Below, in pieces: positions 16,844 to 30,064 of a stretch of 64,000 bases of DNA (position 1 is its first letter; each line of letters starts with the position of its first letter). Source of the DNA: Escherichia phage vB_EcoS_AKFV33. The stretch lies in the sequence record NC_017969.1; one strand, 5' to 3'. The notes beneath the pieces are model-generated. The model did no database searches and was not told the origin of the DNA. It worked only from the letters and a program-made list of their open reading frames with translations. Made by a program: the position numbers and the translations under genes.

Positions 16844-16872
16844 TTGCTTTCAGGAAAATTTTTCTGTATAAT
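16844..16872 (+). promoter_or_regulatory. T5 early promoter, PN25-like
   Basis: TTGCTT, 17 nt, TATAAT, then AGATTCATAAATTTGAGAGAGGAGTTTAAATATG; from memory this matches the classical T5 PN25 promoter and its leader nearly base for base. Confidence 0.85.
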
Positions 16873-17868: not shown

Positions 17869-17898
17869 GTTGCTTAATCCTATAATTCTTGATATAAT
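17869..17898 (+). promoter_or_regulatory. T5-type early promoter (TTGCTT-18-TATAAT)
   Basis: Consensus hexamers upstream of the codon-optimised ORF at 17956. Confidence 0.65.
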
Positions 17899-17955: not shown

Positions 17956-18366
17956 ATGACTACTCCAACTCAGTGGACTGATGAACTGTTCGAAAAAATG
18001 TCTTCCGAATACGTTGCTCGTATGGAGCAATTCCCAGAGGATGAACGTCCGGGTGTTAGCATGGAAATTGTTAGCGAAATTGCCCAGGAAAATGGTGTAA
18101 CTCCGAACGGTTTTCGTATGAAGCTGACTAAAGCAGGTTTGTATATCAAGAAAGCTGCTGGCTCTGCTTCTAAATCTAGCGCATCTACTGGAGAAAAAGC
18201 TTCCGGTGGTTCTCGTACCTCCAAAGCCCAAGCTCACGCCGATCTTCGCTCAGCATTCTCTGATGCTGGCCTAGCACCAGATTTTCTGGATGATGCAATT
18301 ATCGACAAACTGACCGGTAAAGCGGCTGCTCATCTGGCAGAAGCAATCCGAGCTATCACTAAGTAA
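17956..18366 (+). CDS. hypothetical abundant early protein
   Basis: 136 aa; codon usage strongly biased to E. coli high-expression codons (CTG, CGT, GGT, AAA); own promoter. Confidence 0.55.
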   Translation: MTTPTQWTDELFEKMSSEYVARMEQFPEDERPGVSMEIVSEIAQENGVTPNGFRMKLTKAGLYIKKAAGSASKSSASTGEKASGGSRTSKAQAHADLRSAFSDAGLAPDFLDDAIIDKLTGKAAAHLAEAIRAITK

Positions 18367-18402: not shown

Positions 18403-18699
18403 ATGACCAAAGCTGAAATTATCGCACAATGTGAAAAATTTGGTGAGTTTTATCTTCATTACGAGAAACTTCGTCAGAAAGGAACCACGTACCTTCAGGG
18501 TACGATGGAATTTGATCCAGCCCAAGATAAATATCTAGCTGAGCGTATTAAACGTGAACGTATTCGTAAAGCGAAAGATGATGAGATCCTTGTCTTCTCT
18601 CGTACTAATGATAGCTTCCGTTTTATTCCTGTCGAGAAAGTCCGTCGTGTGACCAGCCTCCAATCAGAGTTAGATCGTGCTTCTCCAGTAGGCCGATAA
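18403..18699 (+). CDS. hypothetical protein
   Basis: 98 aa; AAAGGAACA ribosome-binding site; followed by a terminator. Confidence 0.5.
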   Translation: MTKAEIIAQCEKFGEFYLHYEKLRQKGTTYLQGTMEFDPAQDKYLAERIKRERIRKAKDDEILVFSRTNDSFRFIPVEKVRRVTSLQSELDRASPVGR

Positions 18700-18709
18700 G
18701 AAACCAATT

Positions 18710-18730
18710 AGCCCCTATATGGGGCTTTTT
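18710..18730 (+). terminator. rho-independent terminator
   Basis: GCCCC-TATAT-GGGGC hairpin followed by TTTTT. Confidence 0.75.
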
Positions 18731-18749: not shown

Positions 18750-19058
18750 ATGAGCGAACAGGTAAATCAAAACTATGAAGGACACGTTGATGACCAGTCC
18801 ATCATACTTTGGGAGAAGGAGGGGGAACAAGTAAGATTAACAGTATCTGAATTTCGTGGGAATCTATACATGGGTATTCGTTACTGGCTTCTTGATATTA
18901 ATGATGAATGGTTTCCAACGAAATCTGGCTTCTCTTTTCCTTACACCCTAGAAACAACATCACAGCTTTTCTATGCGTTTACACAGATTCTTAGCGAATC
19001 TGAGGTTTTACATGAAGTACAGAAACGAGCTGAAGAACTCAAAGCCAAGAATGCCTAG
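18750..19058 (+). CDS. hypothetical protein
   Basis: 102 aa. Confidence 0.45.
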   Translation: MSEQVNQNYEGHVDDQSIILWEKEGEQVRLTVSEFRGNLYMGIRYWLLDINDEWFPTKSGFSFPYTLETTSQLFYAFTQILSESEVLHEVQKRAEELKAKNA

Positions 19059-19072
19059 TTCTTGGCTTTTTC
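19044..19072 (+). terminator. rho-independent terminator overlapping the stop codon
   Basis: GCCAAGA / TCTTGGC stem followed by TTTTTC. Confidence 0.65.
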
Positions 19073-19085
19073 TTTATAAATGTAC

Positions 19086-19114
19086 TTGCTTTCAACTCAG
19101 TTTTGTTATATAAT
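19086..19114 (+). promoter_or_regulatory. T5-type early promoter (TTGCTT-17-TATAAT)
   Basis: Consensus elements upstream of ligA. Confidence 0.75.
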
Positions 19115-20167: not shown

Positions 20168-20196
20168 TTGACATTTTCGCCGCTTAGGTATATACT
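20168..20196 (+). promoter_or_regulatory. sigma70 promoter (TTGACA-17-TATACT) inside the ligase split
   Basis: Consensus -35 with 17 nt spacing in the 199 bp spacer between the ligase parts. Confidence 0.65.
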
Positions 20197-20260: not shown

Positions 20261-20289
20261 TTGCTAAATGCTTAAATACTTGCTATAAT
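20261..20289 (+). promoter_or_regulatory. T5-type early promoter (TTGCTA-17-TATAAT)
   Basis: Second promoter in the spacer, directly upstream of the second ligase ORF. Confidence 0.65.
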
Positions 20290-20316: not shown

Positions 20317-21090
20317 TTGATGAAAATCGAAATTCCAACACAATGTCCCTCTTGTGGTTCTAAGCTAGATCTTGTCAACGGACAATTATTCTGTCGGAAT
20401 AAGTCCAACTGTCCAGCGCAATCAAGTAAGTTAATTGAGAACTTCTGTACAAAAATGAAGTTAAAGGGCTTTGGTCCAAAAACTATTGAGAAGCTGGAGC
20501 TGACGAAGATTTCAGAACTATTTTACCTAACCGAAGAAGATTTGGTTAGAGCCGTGGGTAGCAAGGTTGCCGCTAAGTTAATTAGCGAATTAAATACTAA
20601 AGTTCGCGGAGACATTGACTTTGGTTCAGTTCTCGGTTCTTTAGGAATCCCTCTAATTGGAGAGGTTGCAGCAAAGAAATTATCCCAAAATTGCACTAGC
20701 TTCCACGATGTGAAGGCTGACGGCAAGGCTGGAGAAAATTATAAAGCCTGGCTAAATTCCCCACAGGGCAAGGATGTTATCGAATTACCGTGGAAATTCT
20801 CAACTGGTGCTAAAACTAAAACCGTCGTTACTGATGATTTAGTTGCCCAGCCAAATGGAATCGCGGTATGTATTACCGGATCTTTGCAAGATTTTGCAAA
20901 TCGAACGGATGCAACAAACTATTTAGAAGGTCTAGGATACACGGTTAAGAAATCCGTTACCAAAGACGTAAAATACCTGATCTGTGAGGATGAATCAAAA
21001 CGTTCTTCCTCATCTTATAAGAAAGCCGAAACGAATGGGATAGAAATCCTGTCGATTAAAGAACTATTGGAGAAAAATAATAATGTCTAA
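20317..21090 (+). CDS. ligB: NAD-dependent DNA ligase, C-terminal part (zinc finger, HhH, BRCT)
   Basis: 257 aa; Cys4 zinc finger (CPSCGS...CRNKSNC), helix-hairpin-helix LKGFGPKTIEKL, BRCT-like C-terminus. Confidence 0.8.
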   Translation: MMKIEIPTQCPSCGSKLDLVNGQLFCRNKSNCPAQSSKLIENFCTKMKLKGFGPKTIEKLELTKISELFYLTEEDLVRAVGSKVAAKLISELNTKVRGDIDFGSVLGSLGIPLIGEVAAKKLSQNCTSFHDVKADGKAGENYKAWLNSPQGKDVIELPWKFSTGAKTKTVVTDDLVAQPNGIAVCITGSLQDFANRTDATNYLEGLGYTVKKSVTKDVKYLICEDESKRSSSSYKKAETNGIEILSIKELLEKNNNV

Positions 21091-21850
21091 ACTGAACTGG
21101 AACGTAGAAGGTGTAACCGAGTCTCTGAAAGCAAAAGCCACTGCTCTGGGTGTTTCTGTAATCTCTCAAGAACAAGTAGCCGCTATCGCTGCTGAACTGG
21201 CTGCTGAAACTGGCAAAGATGTTACCGCTCGCTCTGTTGGCTCTAAACTGCGTAAAGAAGGTTTTGAAGTACAGAAAGCTAACGAAGTACAGAAATCCCC
21301 GTGGACTCCTGAGCAGGAAGCTGAACTGGTTGATTTCCTGAACGCTCATGCTGGTCAGTATACCTATGCTGAAATCGCTGCTGCTGTAGCTGGTGGTCAG
21401 TTCGGTGCTAAGCAGGTACAGGGTAAGATTCTGAGCCTGGAAATGACCGCTTCTGTTAAGCCAACCGAAAAAGCTGCTGCTGTTCGTTCCTTCACTCCGG
21501 ATGAAGAAACTGATTTTGTTAATCAGGTTGTTGCTGGCGCTACTATTGAAGCTATCGCTGCTCACTTCGGTCGTAATATCAAGCAGATCCGTGGTAAAGC
21601 TCTGAGTTTGCTTCGTGAAGGTCGTATCGCTGCTATGCCGGTACAGGAAACTTCAAGTGCTAAAACTCGTGAAGATCTGTTAGAAGGTCTGGATCTGGTT
21701 AACATGACTGTTGCTGAGATCGCTGAGAAAACTGGTAAGTCTGAGCGCGGTGTTAAATCTATGCTGTCTCGTCGTGGTCTGGTTGCTAAGGACTATGATG
21801 GTGCCGCTAAGCGTGCTAAACTGGATGCAAAAGCTGCGGCTGCTGAATAA
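21083..21850 (+). CDS. Ala-rich protein with four tandem HTH-like repeats (abundant early DNA-binding protein candidate)
   Basis: 255 aa; four repeats of the form xTxAEIAxxxGxxxxxVxGKxLSxxxxG; codon usage strongly biased to high-expression codons. Confidence 0.55.
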   Translation: MSKLNWNVEGVTESLKAKATALGVSVISQEQVAAIAAELAAETGKDVTARSVGSKLRKEGFEVQKANEVQKSPWTPEQEAELVDFLNAHAGQYTYAEIAAAVAGGQFGAKQVQGKILSLEMTASVKPTEKAAAVRSFTPDEETDFVNQVVAGATIEAIAAHFGRNIKQIRGKALSLLREGRIAAMPVQETSSAKTREDLLEGLDLVNMTVAEIAEKTGKSERGVKSMLSRRGLVAKDYDGAAKRAKLDAKAAAAE

Positions 21851-21867: not shown

Positions 21868-21899
21868 AAGGGGAGGGGGCTATGCTCCTTCCCCTTTTT
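21868..21899 (+). terminator. rho-independent terminator
   Basis: AAGGGGA...TCCCCTT stem followed by TTTTT. Confidence 0.7.
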
Positions 21900-21932
21900 G
21901 CATTTAGAAGGCACGAAAGCGTGCAAAGGAGA

Positions 21933-23405: not shown

Positions 23406-24292
23406 GTAGAATAACAGAACTACTTGATCTGAAAGGCATTGAATATAAAGACACAGGTGGGGACATCCTCATCTGTTGTCTCAATCCAGATCATGACGAT
23501 AAACACCCAAGTTTGCGTATTGATCCTGAAACAGGTATTATGCACTGCTTGAGTTGTGGCTTCGGTAAAGGTATACCGAGCATTTACCATTATTTTAATG
23601 AGACTCAGTACCGACAGTCTCCAAGACTATCGCAGGTACGTAAAAAGATTTCAGAGATTAGGAATGGATCTACAAATCTTGCAATTCCTGAATCTGCTTA
23701 CCTTTTCGAAGGTGATTTCCGAGGTATAAGTTCTAAGACCTTGAAGAAATATTTTGCTTTCCAACACCAAGCAGACTGGGAAGGCAGAATTGTATTCCCA
23801 ATCACAGATGCTGTTGGACGCAATATCCTATTTTTGGGTCGTTCTATAAACAGTTCTGCCCCTCCTAAATACTTAGTAAAACCAAAACAAGTTTCACCAC
23901 CGATTTTCCCTGTACGATATAATACTCCAGTTCTTATTCTAGTTGAAGGTATCTTTGATATGCTGAACCTAGAGGATAATGGTATAGACTATGCTTCTTG
24001 CTGCTTTGGTACACATCAGTTTACTTCAGATAACATTGCAGATAAGTTTAGCCCTTATATTATTGCTGGTGTTAAAGTTGTTGTTATCTTACTAGATAAT
24101 GATGCTTCTGGTAATAAAGCTGCACAAGCACTGGCTAAGCTAATTCGTACAAAAACGCGTTTAACACCTGTAGTTGCTAACTTTCTTCTACCTGAAGGTA
24201 AAGACCCAGGTGACTTAAATAAAGAAGAAATTGATATGTTAGCAAAACGTATTGAAATTTTAGTTGCTGAATCGCTTAAAGATTTGGTATAA
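23402..24292 (+). CDS. DNA primase (zinc finger and TOPRIM)
   Basis: 296 aa; N-terminal zinc-binding CxH...CxxC segment, TOPRIM-like EGIFD and LLDNDASG blocks. Confidence 0.8.
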   Translation: MSRITELLDLKGIEYKDTGGDILICCLNPDHDDKHPSLRIDPETGIMHCLSCGFGKGIPSIYHYFNETQYRQSPRLSQVRKKISEIRNGSTNLAIPESAYLFEGDFRGISSKTLKKYFAFQHQADWEGRIVFPITDAVGRNILFLGRSINSSAPPKYLVKPKQVSPPIFPVRYNTPVLILVEGIFDMLNLEDNGIDYASCCFGTHQFTSDNIADKFSPYIIAGVKVVVILLDNDASGNKAAQALAKLIRTKTRLTPVVANFLLPEGKDPGDLNKEEIDMLAKRIEILVAESLKDLV

Positions 24293-24354
24293 TATATTGG
24301 TAAGTTAGAGAAGAAACACTGAAGTTATACTTACTTACCAAGAGGAGATTAAAT

Positions 24355-27412: not shown

Positions 27413-28761
27413 AGGTTGTTATATCTAATAAAGCCTATTTCAAGCCCGATGATGAACTTTGGGATTATTGTAGTAAGCAAACCACTTATCACATTGAGAC
27501 AATGACTAGTAAATACCCTATTATGTATAAGAATAGTGGTGTTGTTGCTAAAGAGATTAAGTGGATTCCTATCACGCGTCTGGATTTACTAGATGCTAAA
27601 GGAGTAAAATACGAATTAGTCGATAAACGCACATTAGCTCCGGTAGATATACCAAAACCTAAGTTCAAGCTGCGCGAAGAAGATCAGCTTCCAATATACG
27701 AAGAATGCGATGATACCTGTATTATTAATGGTAAGCCTGGATTTGGTAAAACTATCCTAGCCCTTGCACTTGCGTATAAATTTGGCCAGAAAACTTTGGT
27801 AATTTGTACCAACACATCTATTCGTGAAATGTGGGCGGCAGAAGTTCGTAAATGGTTTGGGTTTGAACCAGGTATCATAGGTTCTGGGAAATACAATATT
27901 GATCCACCAATTGTGGTCAGTAATATTCAAACAGTGAATAAACATGCGAATAATCTTTCTAAAGTATTCGGTACTGTTATAGTTGATGAAGTTCACCATT
28001 GTGTGGCTACAACTTTCACTAACTTCCTAGAAATATCATGTGCTCGCTATAAGATCGGACTATCTGGAACATTAAAACGGAAAGATGGTCTACAAGTCAT
28101 GTTCAAAGATTTCTTTGGATATAAGATCTTTAGCCCACCGGTTAATAATACTATTGCTCCTACAATCCATAGGTACTCCGTGCCTGTTGAGCTATCAGGA
28201 AACCAAAACGTACCGTGGGCATTACGTGCTAATGATGTGTATAATCATCCTGAATATAGGGAGACTATTATAAATCTAGCACATTTATATGTGAATATGG
28301 GGCATAAAGTACTCATTGTAAGTGACAGAACAGAGTTAATCCAAACAGTACTAGAAGCTCTTGCACAGCGTGGTGTTACAACATATGAAATTATAGGGGC
28401 AACTCACTTAGATGACCGATTAAAAATTCAGGAAGATATAGCAAAAGGTGGACCTTGTGTACTTGCAGCCGCTCAAAGTATCTTCTCTGAGGGTATTTCC
28501 CTTAATGAATTATCTTGCTTAATAATGGGCAGTCTCATTAATAATGAGTCTCTCATTGAACAGCTCGCAGGCCGTGTTCAACGTATTGTCGATGGTAAAC
28601 TAGACCCTATTGTTGTGGATCTAATTATGAAAGGCGGCACTGGACTAAGACAGGCTTCTGGACGTATGGCAGTATATCGTAACAACGGGTGGAAAACTAT
28701 TACCATGACTCCTGAGAAAGCAGTTCAATTAGCTAAAATTGCATTTGGCAACAGCTCATAA
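27409..28761 (+). CDS. SF2 DNA helicase (T5 D10-like)
   Basis: 450 aa; Walker A GKPGFGKT and DEVH box (VDEVHH). Confidence 0.8.
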   Translation: MKVVISNKAYFKPDDELWDYCSKQTTYHIETMTSKYPIMYKNSGVVAKEIKWIPITRLDLLDAKGVKYELVDKRTLAPVDIPKPKFKLREEDQLPIYEECDDTCIINGKPGFGKTILALALAYKFGQKTLVICTNTSIREMWAAEVRKWFGFEPGIIGSGKYNIDPPIVVSNIQTVNKHANNLSKVFGTVIVDEVHHCVATTFTNFLEISCARYKIGLSGTLKRKDGLQVMFKDFFGYKIFSPPVNNTIAPTIHRYSVPVELSGNQNVPWALRANDVYNHPEYRETIINLAHLYVNMGHKVLIVSDRTELIQTVLEALAQRGVTTYEIIGATHLDDRLKIQEDIAKGGPCVLAAAQSIFSEGISLNELSCLIMGSLINNESLIEQLAGRVQRIVDGKLDPIVVDLIMKGGTGLRQASGRMAVYRNNGWKTITMTPEKAVQLAKIAFGNSS

Positions 28762-28773
28762 ATGATGTATAAT
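28745..28773 (+). promoter_or_regulatory. T5-type early promoter (TTGGCA-17-TATAAT)
   Basis: Overlaps the helicase 3' end; followed by the ACATAAATTTGAGAGAG leader. Confidence 0.55.
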
Positions 28774-28844
28774 ATATACATAAATTTGAGAGAGAAAGTT
28801 TCGGATTGATAAGAAAGTCCGAAGCAGAAAAATAAAAATTTTAG

Positions 28845-28874
28845 TTGCTAAATTCTCTCGAAATCTAGTATAAT
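28845..28874 (+). promoter_or_regulatory. T5-type early promoter (TTGCTA-18-TATAAT)
   Basis: Second copy 100 bp downstream with the same ACATAAATTCGAGGAG leader. Confidence 0.6.
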
Positions 28875-28981
28875 ATATACATAAATTCGAGGAGAAAATA
28901 AAAATTAAATTCTTCGATTATGAAAAGCTATACTTACTAGCTAGAGGAAATTCCGACCTAATTATTAAGCTATTCAAAAGA

Positions 28982-29266
28982 ATGCTTACAGAGCCTGATG
29001 CTCACCAATTATTGGTCGGTTCCTCATTCATTTTGAATGAATCAACAATAGTTGATAATCCAAATAAATTGTCTAACAGACAACTGGCAGAATATCTAGG
29101 AATTTTAAGTCTACGAAATTATGCCGAATACAAGTTTACAAACGATCCTAGTTTGGACATACAATATGTTCCAGTATGGATACCACGTTTAGTAATCGAC
29201 ACTAACCCACTAATCGCAATTAACAAATCAAAATTAATCTTTAAAGAGGAAATAAAATATGGCTAA
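28982..29266 (+). CDS. hypothetical protein
   Basis: 94 aa; no in-frame ATG upstream back to the preceding stop. Confidence 0.4.
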   Translation: MLTEPDAHQLLVGSSFILNESTIVDNPNKLSNRQLAEYLGILSLRNYAEYKFTNDPSLDIQYVPVWIPRLVIDTNPLIAINKSKLIFKEEIKYG

Positions 29267-30032
29267 GTCTTGGGGCGAAACTACTGGCGGTTCTAACGAT
29301 AAAATCGAATTCCTGAAGTTCAACAACGGTATCACTCGTGTTCGTATCGTTTCTGGTGTTCTTCCACGTTATGTCTATTGGCTGACTAATAAAGAGGGTA
29401 ACGTAGCTCCTTTCGAATGTCTCCGTTTTAACCGTGACAAAGAGAGCTTTGTTCGTGGTAAAGCTGACCCGGTTCATGAGATGGGCTTCTTTGAGAAAGA
29501 GCTGGATAAAGATGGTAATCGTGTTCCCCTGAAACCGAAGAAAAACTATATCGCTTTTGTTATCGACCGTTCTGATAACAAACTGAAAGTAATGGAAGTC
29601 AAGGCTACTATTCTGAAGGGCATCCAGTCTATCATGAAGCAGCTGAGCCTGGCAACTCCGTTTGATATTGATATTTCTATCGAGAAAAAAGGTAAAGGTT
29701 TCGATACTGAGTATGATGTACAGCAGATTGCTGCTATGCAGTTCCAGATTAAGCTGCAAGATCCTAACAGTGCAGAATCTAAGCAATATGCTGCGGATGT
29801 CGATCTGATCGGTGAAGCTATGTGTGATAAAGATGGCGACATCATTAAGTTCGAAAAAGTTCCTTCTCTGGAACAAACCTATCCGGTTCCTACCTATGAA
29901 GAGCAGAAAGAAGCAATTCTAGCCTTCATGGAGGGTCGCGAGAATAAAGATGATGATGCCAAATCTGGTAATAGCAATGCAGGTTCCCAGAAAGGTATTG
30001 ACTCAGAAGCTGCAAGCGATCTGGACGACTAA
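29259..30032 (+). CDS. hypothetical abundant protein with acidic C-terminal tail (ssDNA-binding protein candidate)
   Basis: 257 aa; high-expression codon bias; Asp/Glu-rich C-terminus ending ASDLDD, as seen in phage SSBs; the function is inferred only. Confidence 0.4.
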   Translation: MAKSWGETTGGSNDKIEFLKFNNGITRVRIVSGVLPRYVYWLTNKEGNVAPFECLRFNRDKESFVRGKADPVHEMGFFEKELDKDGNRVPLKPKKNYIAFVIDRSDNKLKVMEVKATILKGIQSIMKQLSLATPFDIDISIEKKGKGFDTEYDVQQIAAMQFQIKLQDPNSAESKQYAADVDLIGEAMCDKDGDIIKFEKVPSLEQTYPVPTYEEQKEAILAFMEGRENKDDDAKSGNSNAGSQKGIDSEAASDLDD

Positions 30033-30038
30033 TAAATA

Positions 30039-30064
30039 GAGGGGCTTCGGCCCCTTTCTTTTTA
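30039..30064 (+). terminator. rho-independent terminator
   Basis: GGGGC-TTCG-GCCCC hairpin followed by TTTCTTTTT. Confidence 0.8.

Follow-up and report, generated by a model that had tools for sequence, protein, structure and literature searches.

What kind of protein does a phage gene specify when it is written almost exclusively in the codons that Escherichia coli uses in its highly expressed genes? This question is raised by the open reading frame (ORF) at positions 21083–21850 (+ strand) of a 64,000-nucleotide (nt) stretch of Escherichia phage vB_EcoS_AKFV33 (NC_017969.1), the whole of which is hereafter termed the window. From the letters alone, an original prediction had described the product as a very abundant, early DNA-binding protein with four tandem helix-turn-helix (HTH)-like repeats. 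The reading frame occupies exactly these positions and encodes 255 amino acids (aa; 27.1 kDa, isoelectric point [pI] 6.8), of which 44 (17%) are Ala, in keeping with the Ala-rich composition remarked upon there. Judged by its sequence, the ORF is the orthologue of gene D5 (T5.118) of T5-like phages, encoding an abundant early double-stranded DNA (dsDNA)-binding protein. We hold with considerable confidence that D5 is a bulk early dsDNA-binding protein with four GcrA-type HTH modules, and that it would most likely coat phage DNA stoichiometrically.

The source genome is that of a T5-like phage (Demerecviridae). The gene map around D5 comprises a split NAD-dependent DNA ligase, a DnaB-like helicase, a primase, a family-A DNA polymerase, a D10-type helicase, and an SbcCD-like nuclease, with tail and head genes on the opposite strand, beyond this early replication block; no tRNA genes were found in the 64,000-nt window. 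With megablast, positions 21083–21850 matched 509 phage records, nearly all from T5-like phages of Escherichia, Salmonella, or Klebsiella, and tblastn with the D5 protein matched 901 phage records (889 with at least 80% coverage). The closest megablast record was Escherichia phage IME178 (99.2%), i.e., T5 itself is not the nearest. In T5_ev212, the orthologue (98.6% DNA identity) lies between ligB and the helicase gene and is annotated "D5 protein/DNA-binding protein," with "putative transcription factor D5" and "late gene transcription factor" among the annotations of other matches. Homology to the family is full-length, with residues 1–253 matching PHROG 323 ("transcriptional regulator, D5-like") at E 1.4e-71. 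Relative to bacteriophage T5 gpD5 (T5.118), the protein has the same length of 255 aa, the same gene neighbors, and the same PHROG, and nothing material differs. The order ligB-D5-helicase-primase-polymerase is common to T5_ev212, Vibrio phage Chester, and Proteus phage PM135, with D5 aa identities of 48% (Chester) and 55% (PM135).

Pfam and NCBIfam yielded no decisive family for D5, with HTH matches below threshold except that to Sigma70_r4_2 (see below); a PDB sequence search with the full D5-family profile gave nothing significant (top match, a designed homeodomain at E 0.004); and in structure comparisons against BFVD the whole D5 model was matched by D5 orthologues only. Separately, "partial" Enterococcus faecalis proteins (P0019, P0038, P0298), encoded on contigs of ~500–670 bp, are 98–100% identical to fragments of D5 or of the D3 protein described below; contamination of assemblies by T5-like phage is the likeliest source of these, as opposed to a real Enterococcus gene.

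D5 has been known from genetics and biochemistry since the 1970s, and as an object it is not new; our additions are a sharper domain description together with bookkeeping. Its abundance, its DNA binding, and its effects on replication and late genes come from the literature. D5 forms a major band in T5 and BF23 lysates and is absent from purified virions (PMC10644984), and in preparations of phiR2-01 its spectral counts (T5.118) belong to the highest class (PMC8624392). DNA binding by D5 and effects on replication and late genes are reported in McCorquodale (1979). Low abundance and a lack of nucleic acid binding, the two outcomes named in the original prediction as counting against it, are thus both contradicted by published data, and the position of D5 among the early D genes of the replication block, downstream of a T5-type promoter-like site, bears out the early class that had been assigned to it. 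Classical biochemistry reportedly found that gpD5 binds duplex DNA cooperatively and modulates the T5 polymerase in vitro (Rice et al. 1979; Fujimura & Roop 1983).

D5 has also come to notice in anti-phage defense. A 2026 preprint identifies it as the trigger of retron-Kva2, with retron co-expression amplifying D5 toxicity and mass photometry indicating that D5 remodels the retron-Kva2 complex; that a D5 HTH contacts the msdDNA is predicted by AlphaFold3 in that work. The escape phage T5.1 described there carried D5 G53D, W74*, V149I, and G232D together. In our alignment of 48 D5 homologues, conservation at G53, W74, and G232 is 90% or higher. The W74* nonsense change is odd in a gene classically reported as essential. 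D5 was also considered as a trigger of DRT4 and rejected, as the T5 trigger of DRT4 is ORF55.

To what degree is the codon usage of D5 exceptional? The codon adaptation index (CAI) was calculated for the 67 non-overlapping ORFs of the window with two sets of weights, the first being the Sharp-Li E. coli values. The second set was derived from 30 E. coli K-12 genes of the S10-spc-alpha and str operons (ribosomal-protein, rpoA, and elongation-factor genes). D5 ranked at the top with both, scoring 0.704 with the Sharp-Li weights (mean 0.273, standard deviation [SD] 0.107) and 0.776 with the K-12-derived weights (z 3.7), the latter exceeding even the average for the genes from which the weights were derived (0.684); on this scale, the E. 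coli cryptic gsp genes score 0.336. Among degenerate codons in D5, 84% have w ≥ 0.5, with preferred codons reaching 38/44 for GCT (86%), 16/19 for CTG (84%), 10/12 for CGT (83%), 16/19 for GGT (84%), 8/10 for ATC (80%), and 83% for CAG; GAT and TAT are the exceptions to optimal usage. In 2000 recodings of the D5 protein based on the mean codon usage of the remaining ORFs, the CAI reached 0.396 ± 0.027 (maximum 0.502), leaving the observed 0.776 at z = 13.9. The effective number of codons (Nc), a reference-free measure, was likewise the lowest among the ORFs for D5 (31.0; mean 44.7, SD 5.4). The claim of near-exclusive use of E. coli high-expression codons is therefore well founded. G+C content at third codon positions (GC3) is not raised in D5 (0.33), so the bias is not a composition artefact.

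The bias extends to a small set of other genes. D3 (17956–18366, + strand) and D11 (29259–30032, + strand), which the original prediction had singled out as sharing it, rank third and fourth by CAI, with recoding z values of 6.2 and 9.9, respectively. Rank 2 is held by the gene for the HK97-type major capsid protein (TIGR01554; 54383–55759, − strand), with CAI values of 0.64/0.71 and a recoding z of 17.8; it was absent from the biased ORFs listed in that prediction. The capsid gene serves as an internal positive control for the marking of bulk proteins by high CAI in this genome. Outside the window, Nc was compared in one distant relative with a different host, Vibrio phage Chester, for which D5, D3, and D11 have the three lowest Nc values among the ORFs of a 40.7-kb region around D5, with D5 the most biased of all; low Nc is thus a trait of the gene family and not an accident of one genome. 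As ligB, which is probably co-transcribed with D5, has a low CAI (0.246), selection on D5 acts at the level of translation.

The protein so encoded is modular. An AlphaFold2 model built from the 48 homologues (pLDDT 94) consists of four three-helix units followed by a C-terminal helix, with each HTH unit covering ~45–60 aa at a period of ~60–63 aa. The four tandem HTH-like repeats of the original prediction are therefore present, with its ~30-aa repeat length corresponding to the helix 2-turn-helix 3 core of each unit instead of to the ~60-aa period. Unit 1 (21092–21274, + strand as for all D5 features; aa 4–64) has predicted helices at 11–22, 29–43, and 49–58, with invariant R50, K55, L56, and R57 in helix 3. 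Unit 2 (21296–21454; aa 72–124) has helices at 76–88, 95–101, and 109–118 and invariant Q113, G114, K115, and L117. Unit 3 (21485–21634; aa 135–184) has helices at 139–150, 155–162, and 166–178 and invariant G171 and K172. Unit 4 (21668–21793; aa 196–237), to which the Sigma70_r4_2 match maps, has helices at 210–217 and 221–231 and invariant G223, L228, R230, and R231. The chain ends in a conserved, basic, Ala-rich helix (21800–21844; aa 240–254, GAAKRAKLD...), in which G240 is invariant and K246 nearly so; this is possibly a protein-protein or cooperativity element.

For comparison of the units, the D5-family alignment was split into four segments and each was run against each with hhalign. 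Units 2 and 3 are clear duplicates (96%, E 1.6e-9, 38% identity over 45 columns), and the stacked units follow a common template, W/F-x-x-E ... T-h-x-x-I-A ... G ... R/K-x-V-x-G/S-K-h-h. A trace of repetition is also visible in the DNA, where the motif GCTATCGCTGCT (A-I-A-A) occurs at 21182, 21371, and 21551, i.e., with spacings of 189 and 180 nt. In the 48-homologue alignment and the model, family-invariant residues cluster in the third helix of every unit; as the most conserved residues lie in this helix (R/Q-x-V-x-G/S-K-h-h) in each module, all four probably contact DNA, and the clustering suggests that all four units are functional. A one-unit D5 profile, run against 1.84 billion representative proteins, recovered four stretches in canonical D5 proteins, three (P0165, 182 aa) or five (P0123, 309 aa) in certain D5 relatives, and up to 10 in more distant tandem arrays. 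Among the latter, proteins from public (meta)genomes (P0170, P0171, P0176, P0188, P0197, and P0205) carry 5–10 tandem GcrA-type HTH units, one of them together with a helicase domain.

To which HTH class do these units belong? The N-terminal sequence of Caulobacter crescentus GcrA used here is 100% identical to residues 1–49 of 7ye1_G in the PDB. Against this DNA-binding domain (DBD), the D5 unit profile gave an hhalign probability of 96% and a score of 40 over 46 columns, whereas 200 shuffles of GcrA reached at most 14.8 and six other HTH classes (c-Myb R1–R3, engrailed, sigma-70 region 4, NarL, Cro, and Hin) scored 10–17. Individually, units 1 and 3 matched the GcrA DBD at 73% and 86%, and the three-helix HTH fold of D5 is superposable on that domain. 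Moreover, several multi-unit proteins from the unit-profile search are strongly positive for Pfam GcrA (PF07750; E 4e-55 to 7e-26), and these arrays bridge the D5 and GcrA families at the level of sequence. The two architectures differ in that GcrA (PDB 5yiu, 7ye1) has one DBD and a C-terminal part, whereas D5 has four DBD-like units. GcrA prefers methylated GANTC, and its sigma-70-interacting region is located C-terminal to the DBD. As far as we found, a GcrA-type origin of the D5 module is not stated in the T5/D5 literature examined.

The Myb/SANT, homeodomain, LuxR/NarL, Cro, and Hin classes were rejected on the same scale (10–17 vs. 40 for GcrA). The Myb/SANT fold merits further comment, as tandem arrays of this type (c-Myb R1R2R3, the Timeless DNA-binding domain, SNAPc4) resemble D5 in their serial three-helix HTH units and gave weak sequence and structure matches; each unit in such arrays is able to enter the major groove. 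Still, Myb repeats carry three regularly spaced Trp residues and D5 units do not (W6 and W74 only), Pfam Myb_DNA-binding reached 17.6 bits against a cutoff of 24.4, and the c-Myb repeats scored 14.5–16.8 in hhalign. Identification of D5 as a sigma factor was also rejected: only the region-4 HTH core is matched (profile positions 23–49 of 54), regions 2 and 3 are lacking, and E. coli sigma-70 region 4 scores 16 in hhalign. As for phi29 p6 and SPO1 TF1, bulk early phage proteins that coat phage DNA and affect replication and the transcription switch, the analogy with D5 is functional only; their folds bear no relation to that of D5, to which they showed no similarity in sequence or structure.

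Signals suited to high output can be read around the gene. A T5-type sigma-70 promoter-like site (TTGCTA-17-TATAAT with an extended −10 TG; 10/12 match) lies at 20261–20289 (+ strand) in the ligA-ligB spacer and is the probable promoter of a ligB-D5 unit; a second promoter-like site upstream (TTGACA-17-TATACT; 20168–20196, + strand) is a consensus match only (11/12). There are 10 occurrences of the pattern TTGCT-N17–19-TATAAT in the window, where 0.34 would be expected, with + strand sites at 16844–16872, 17870–17898, 19086–19114, 20261–20289, 24264–24293, 28845–28874, and others; such sites precede D2, D3, ligA, ligB-D5, the polymerase gene, and a small ORF-D11 pair. The ligB gene itself (NAD-dependent DNA ligase subunit B; 20317–21090, + strand) shares 8 nt with D5 through the overlap of its stop with the D5 start, and a GGAG Shine-Dalgarno-like element can be read at 21069–21072 (+ strand), 10 nt from the D5 ATG. 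Downstream, 18 nt past the D5 stop, is an intrinsic-terminator-like hairpin with a T-run (21868–21906, + strand), predicted to have a 13-bp stem with 8 GC pairs and a folding energy of −25.6 kcal/mol (z −3.0; none of 200 shuffles folds as well). The helicase ATG used in T5_ev212 (21882) sits in the loop of this hairpin. The DnaB-like helicase orthologues in Chester and PM135 start at the position of M18 (ATG 21933, M-x-x-NVQAVVLK), so that the annotation probably places the helicase start 17 codons too far upstream.

From these elements a mode of action can be proposed. D5 would be a chain of four three-helix HTH modules of the GcrA type, joined by short linkers and ending in the conserved basic C-terminal helix, and would act stoichiometrically instead of catalytically, being needed in proportion to phage DNA. 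A single monomer would most likely occupy a series of consecutive major-groove positions, and replicating phage DNA would be covered by many of them, with the C-terminal helix perhaps mediating contacts between monomers. Such a coat would modulate access of the polymerase and of RNA polymerase, from which effects on replication and on the early-to-late switch would follow. By our own rough estimate, thousands of D5 monomers would be needed per genome copy, and hence expression signals comparable to those of the capsid gene. The design of the gene would reflect this need for quantity: a strong early promoter of the T5 type before ligB-D5, overlap of the start codon with the ligB stop (presumably for translational coupling), and near-exclusive host-optimal codons would each contribute to supply, and the strong terminator just downstream would most likely keep expression of the helicase and primase much lower.

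Several observations weigh against this proposal and temper our confidence in it. Pfam GcrA does not match D5 at E ≤ 1, its model spanning the whole 155-position GcrA; as D5 comprises four HTH units and a 15-aa helix, with nothing matching the C-terminal part of PF07750, we describe it as four GcrA-type DNA-binding modules and not as GcrA. The sole Pfam match above cutoff is instead that of Sigma70_r4_2 (PF08281) to unit 4 (28.8 bits vs. a cutoff of 25.7; residues 204–230). Units 1 and 4 match the other D5 units weakly (E 1e-3 to 1e-4 in hhalign), and the pTM of the model is only 0.54, so that the relative placement of the four units in it is undefined. D5 is also near neutral (pI 6.8), with K+R about equal to D+E in each unit, which is unusual for a non-specific DNA coat. 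The promoter and terminator of ligB-D5 are consensus and folding predictions. Lastly, many records label D5 a transcription factor, a designation more in line with site-specific action.

That last point leads to the main competing explanation, in which D5 is a sequence-specific transcription factor, GcrA-like in function, working with sigma-70 RNA polymerase at late (or early) promoters, and its abundance is incidental. The annotations quoted above, the GcrA-type fold, and the Sigma70_r4_2 match all speak for this, as do the dependence of late gene expression on D5 reported in McCorquodale (1979) and the fact that the mechanism of the T5 transcription-class switch remains unknown (PMC7472727). 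We nonetheless consider it unlikely, since a specific factor needs no capsid-level expression, whereas D5 equals the capsid gene in codon adaptation and is a major lysate band. Four equivalent modules, varying from three to five in relatives, suit a generic binder better, and no recognition motif for D5 is known. Nor does D5 have a counterpart of the part of GcrA beyond the DBD, where the sigma-70-binding region lies, or a Pfam GcrA match.

An explanation of the codon bias that dispenses with expression level altogether, as a by-product either of composition (aa or GC) or of recent horizontal transfer from a host-like source, could draw on the Ala-rich composition and on a D5 GC content (0.48) above that of the window (~0.39). 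It fails on the recoding test, in which the same protein reaches a CAI of only 0.396 ± 0.027 vs. the 0.776 observed, on the ordinary GC3 of 0.33, and on the equal bias of the capsid gene, as well as on synteny conserved across Demerecviridae and the top rank of D5 in the Chester region; published D5 abundance, too, agrees with the expression reading (PMC10644984). Recoding and conservation together leave this explanation effectively refuted. A primarily protective role, with D5 shielding phage DNA from nucleases and restriction enzymes and its replication and transcription effects being secondary, would account for the insensitivity of T5 and BF23 to restriction in vivo, for which no mechanism is known (PMC10644984), and would suit an abundant DNA-binding protein; that a retron senses D5 is also to be expected for an important, hard-to-lose phage protein (2026 preprint). 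Such a role is very improbable as the primary one, because D5 is encoded on the second-step-transfer DNA, and so is not present when the very DNA in need of protection first enters the cell, and because it is absent from virions (PMC10644984). Stoichiometric coating of phage DNA by a bulk early protein thus remains our preferred account of D5.

At its N-terminus, D3 (136 aa) carries one D5-type HTH unit, which is followed by a disordered linker and, at the C-terminus, by a helical domain; it is the "D3 protein" of T5_ev212 and belongs to phrog_1725 ("DNA binding protein," E 4.7e-50). D11 (257 aa), the "D11 protein" of T5_ev212, matches phrog_1607 ("single strand DNA binding protein," E 3.5e-105), and its PM135 orthologue is annotated as a single-stranded DNA-binding protein (SSB); Pfam, NCBIfam, and PDB sequence searches gave no match, so that its SSB fold is putative. 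Its acidic, SSB-like tail, as had been predicted, is apparent from 9 acidic vs. 3 basic residues among the last 30 and an SDLDD terminus. The three codon-optimized early genes D5, D3, and D11 thus all encode DNA-binding proteins, two of which share one module. Another ORF in this region (18750–19058, + strand; 102 aa) is labeled "putative ssDNA-binding transcriptional regulator" in T5_ev212, looks like the PC4-like protein of T5, and is followed by a terminator-like hairpin (19041–19069).

Further regulatory sites were seen in passing. In the 16844 site (TTGCTTTCAGGAAAATTTTTCTGTATAAT, before D2) we see what is presumably the core of PN25, the classic promoter used in pQE vectors, and the site at 17870, which precedes D3, presumably resembles the PD/E20 promoter; a literature search, which covered the 17870 sequence and not that at 16844, found nothing. 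Upstream of the small ORF and D11, promoter-like sites ~100 nt apart (28745–28795 and 28845–28895, + strand) share the long identical stretch GTATAATATATACATAAATT and look like a tandem promoter duplication. GC-rich hairpins after D11 (30038–30057) and after the ORF at 18403–18699 (18710–18726) are terminator-like on both strands and may be bidirectional terminators.

Ultimately, D5 matters little as a discovery, recent work having observed its abundance once more. Codon adaptation, as taken from the raw sequence, does correctly identify which of the phage proteins are made in bulk (D5, the capsid protein, D11, and D3), and three of the four published retron-Kva2 escape changes (G53D, W74*, and G232D) could be mapped to nearly invariant positions. 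The sharper description, in which D5 has four GcrA-type modules and D3 one, bears on the unsolved early-to-late switch of T5. Tentatively, and improbably in our estimation, D5 and the one-unit D3 might together form a phage "chromatin" of GcrA-type modules, in which progressive coating of replicating T5 DNA by the four-module protein would act as the timer of that switch, shutting early promoters and licensing late ones for unmodified sigma-70 polymerase, with the terminator setting the ratio of D5 to replisome.

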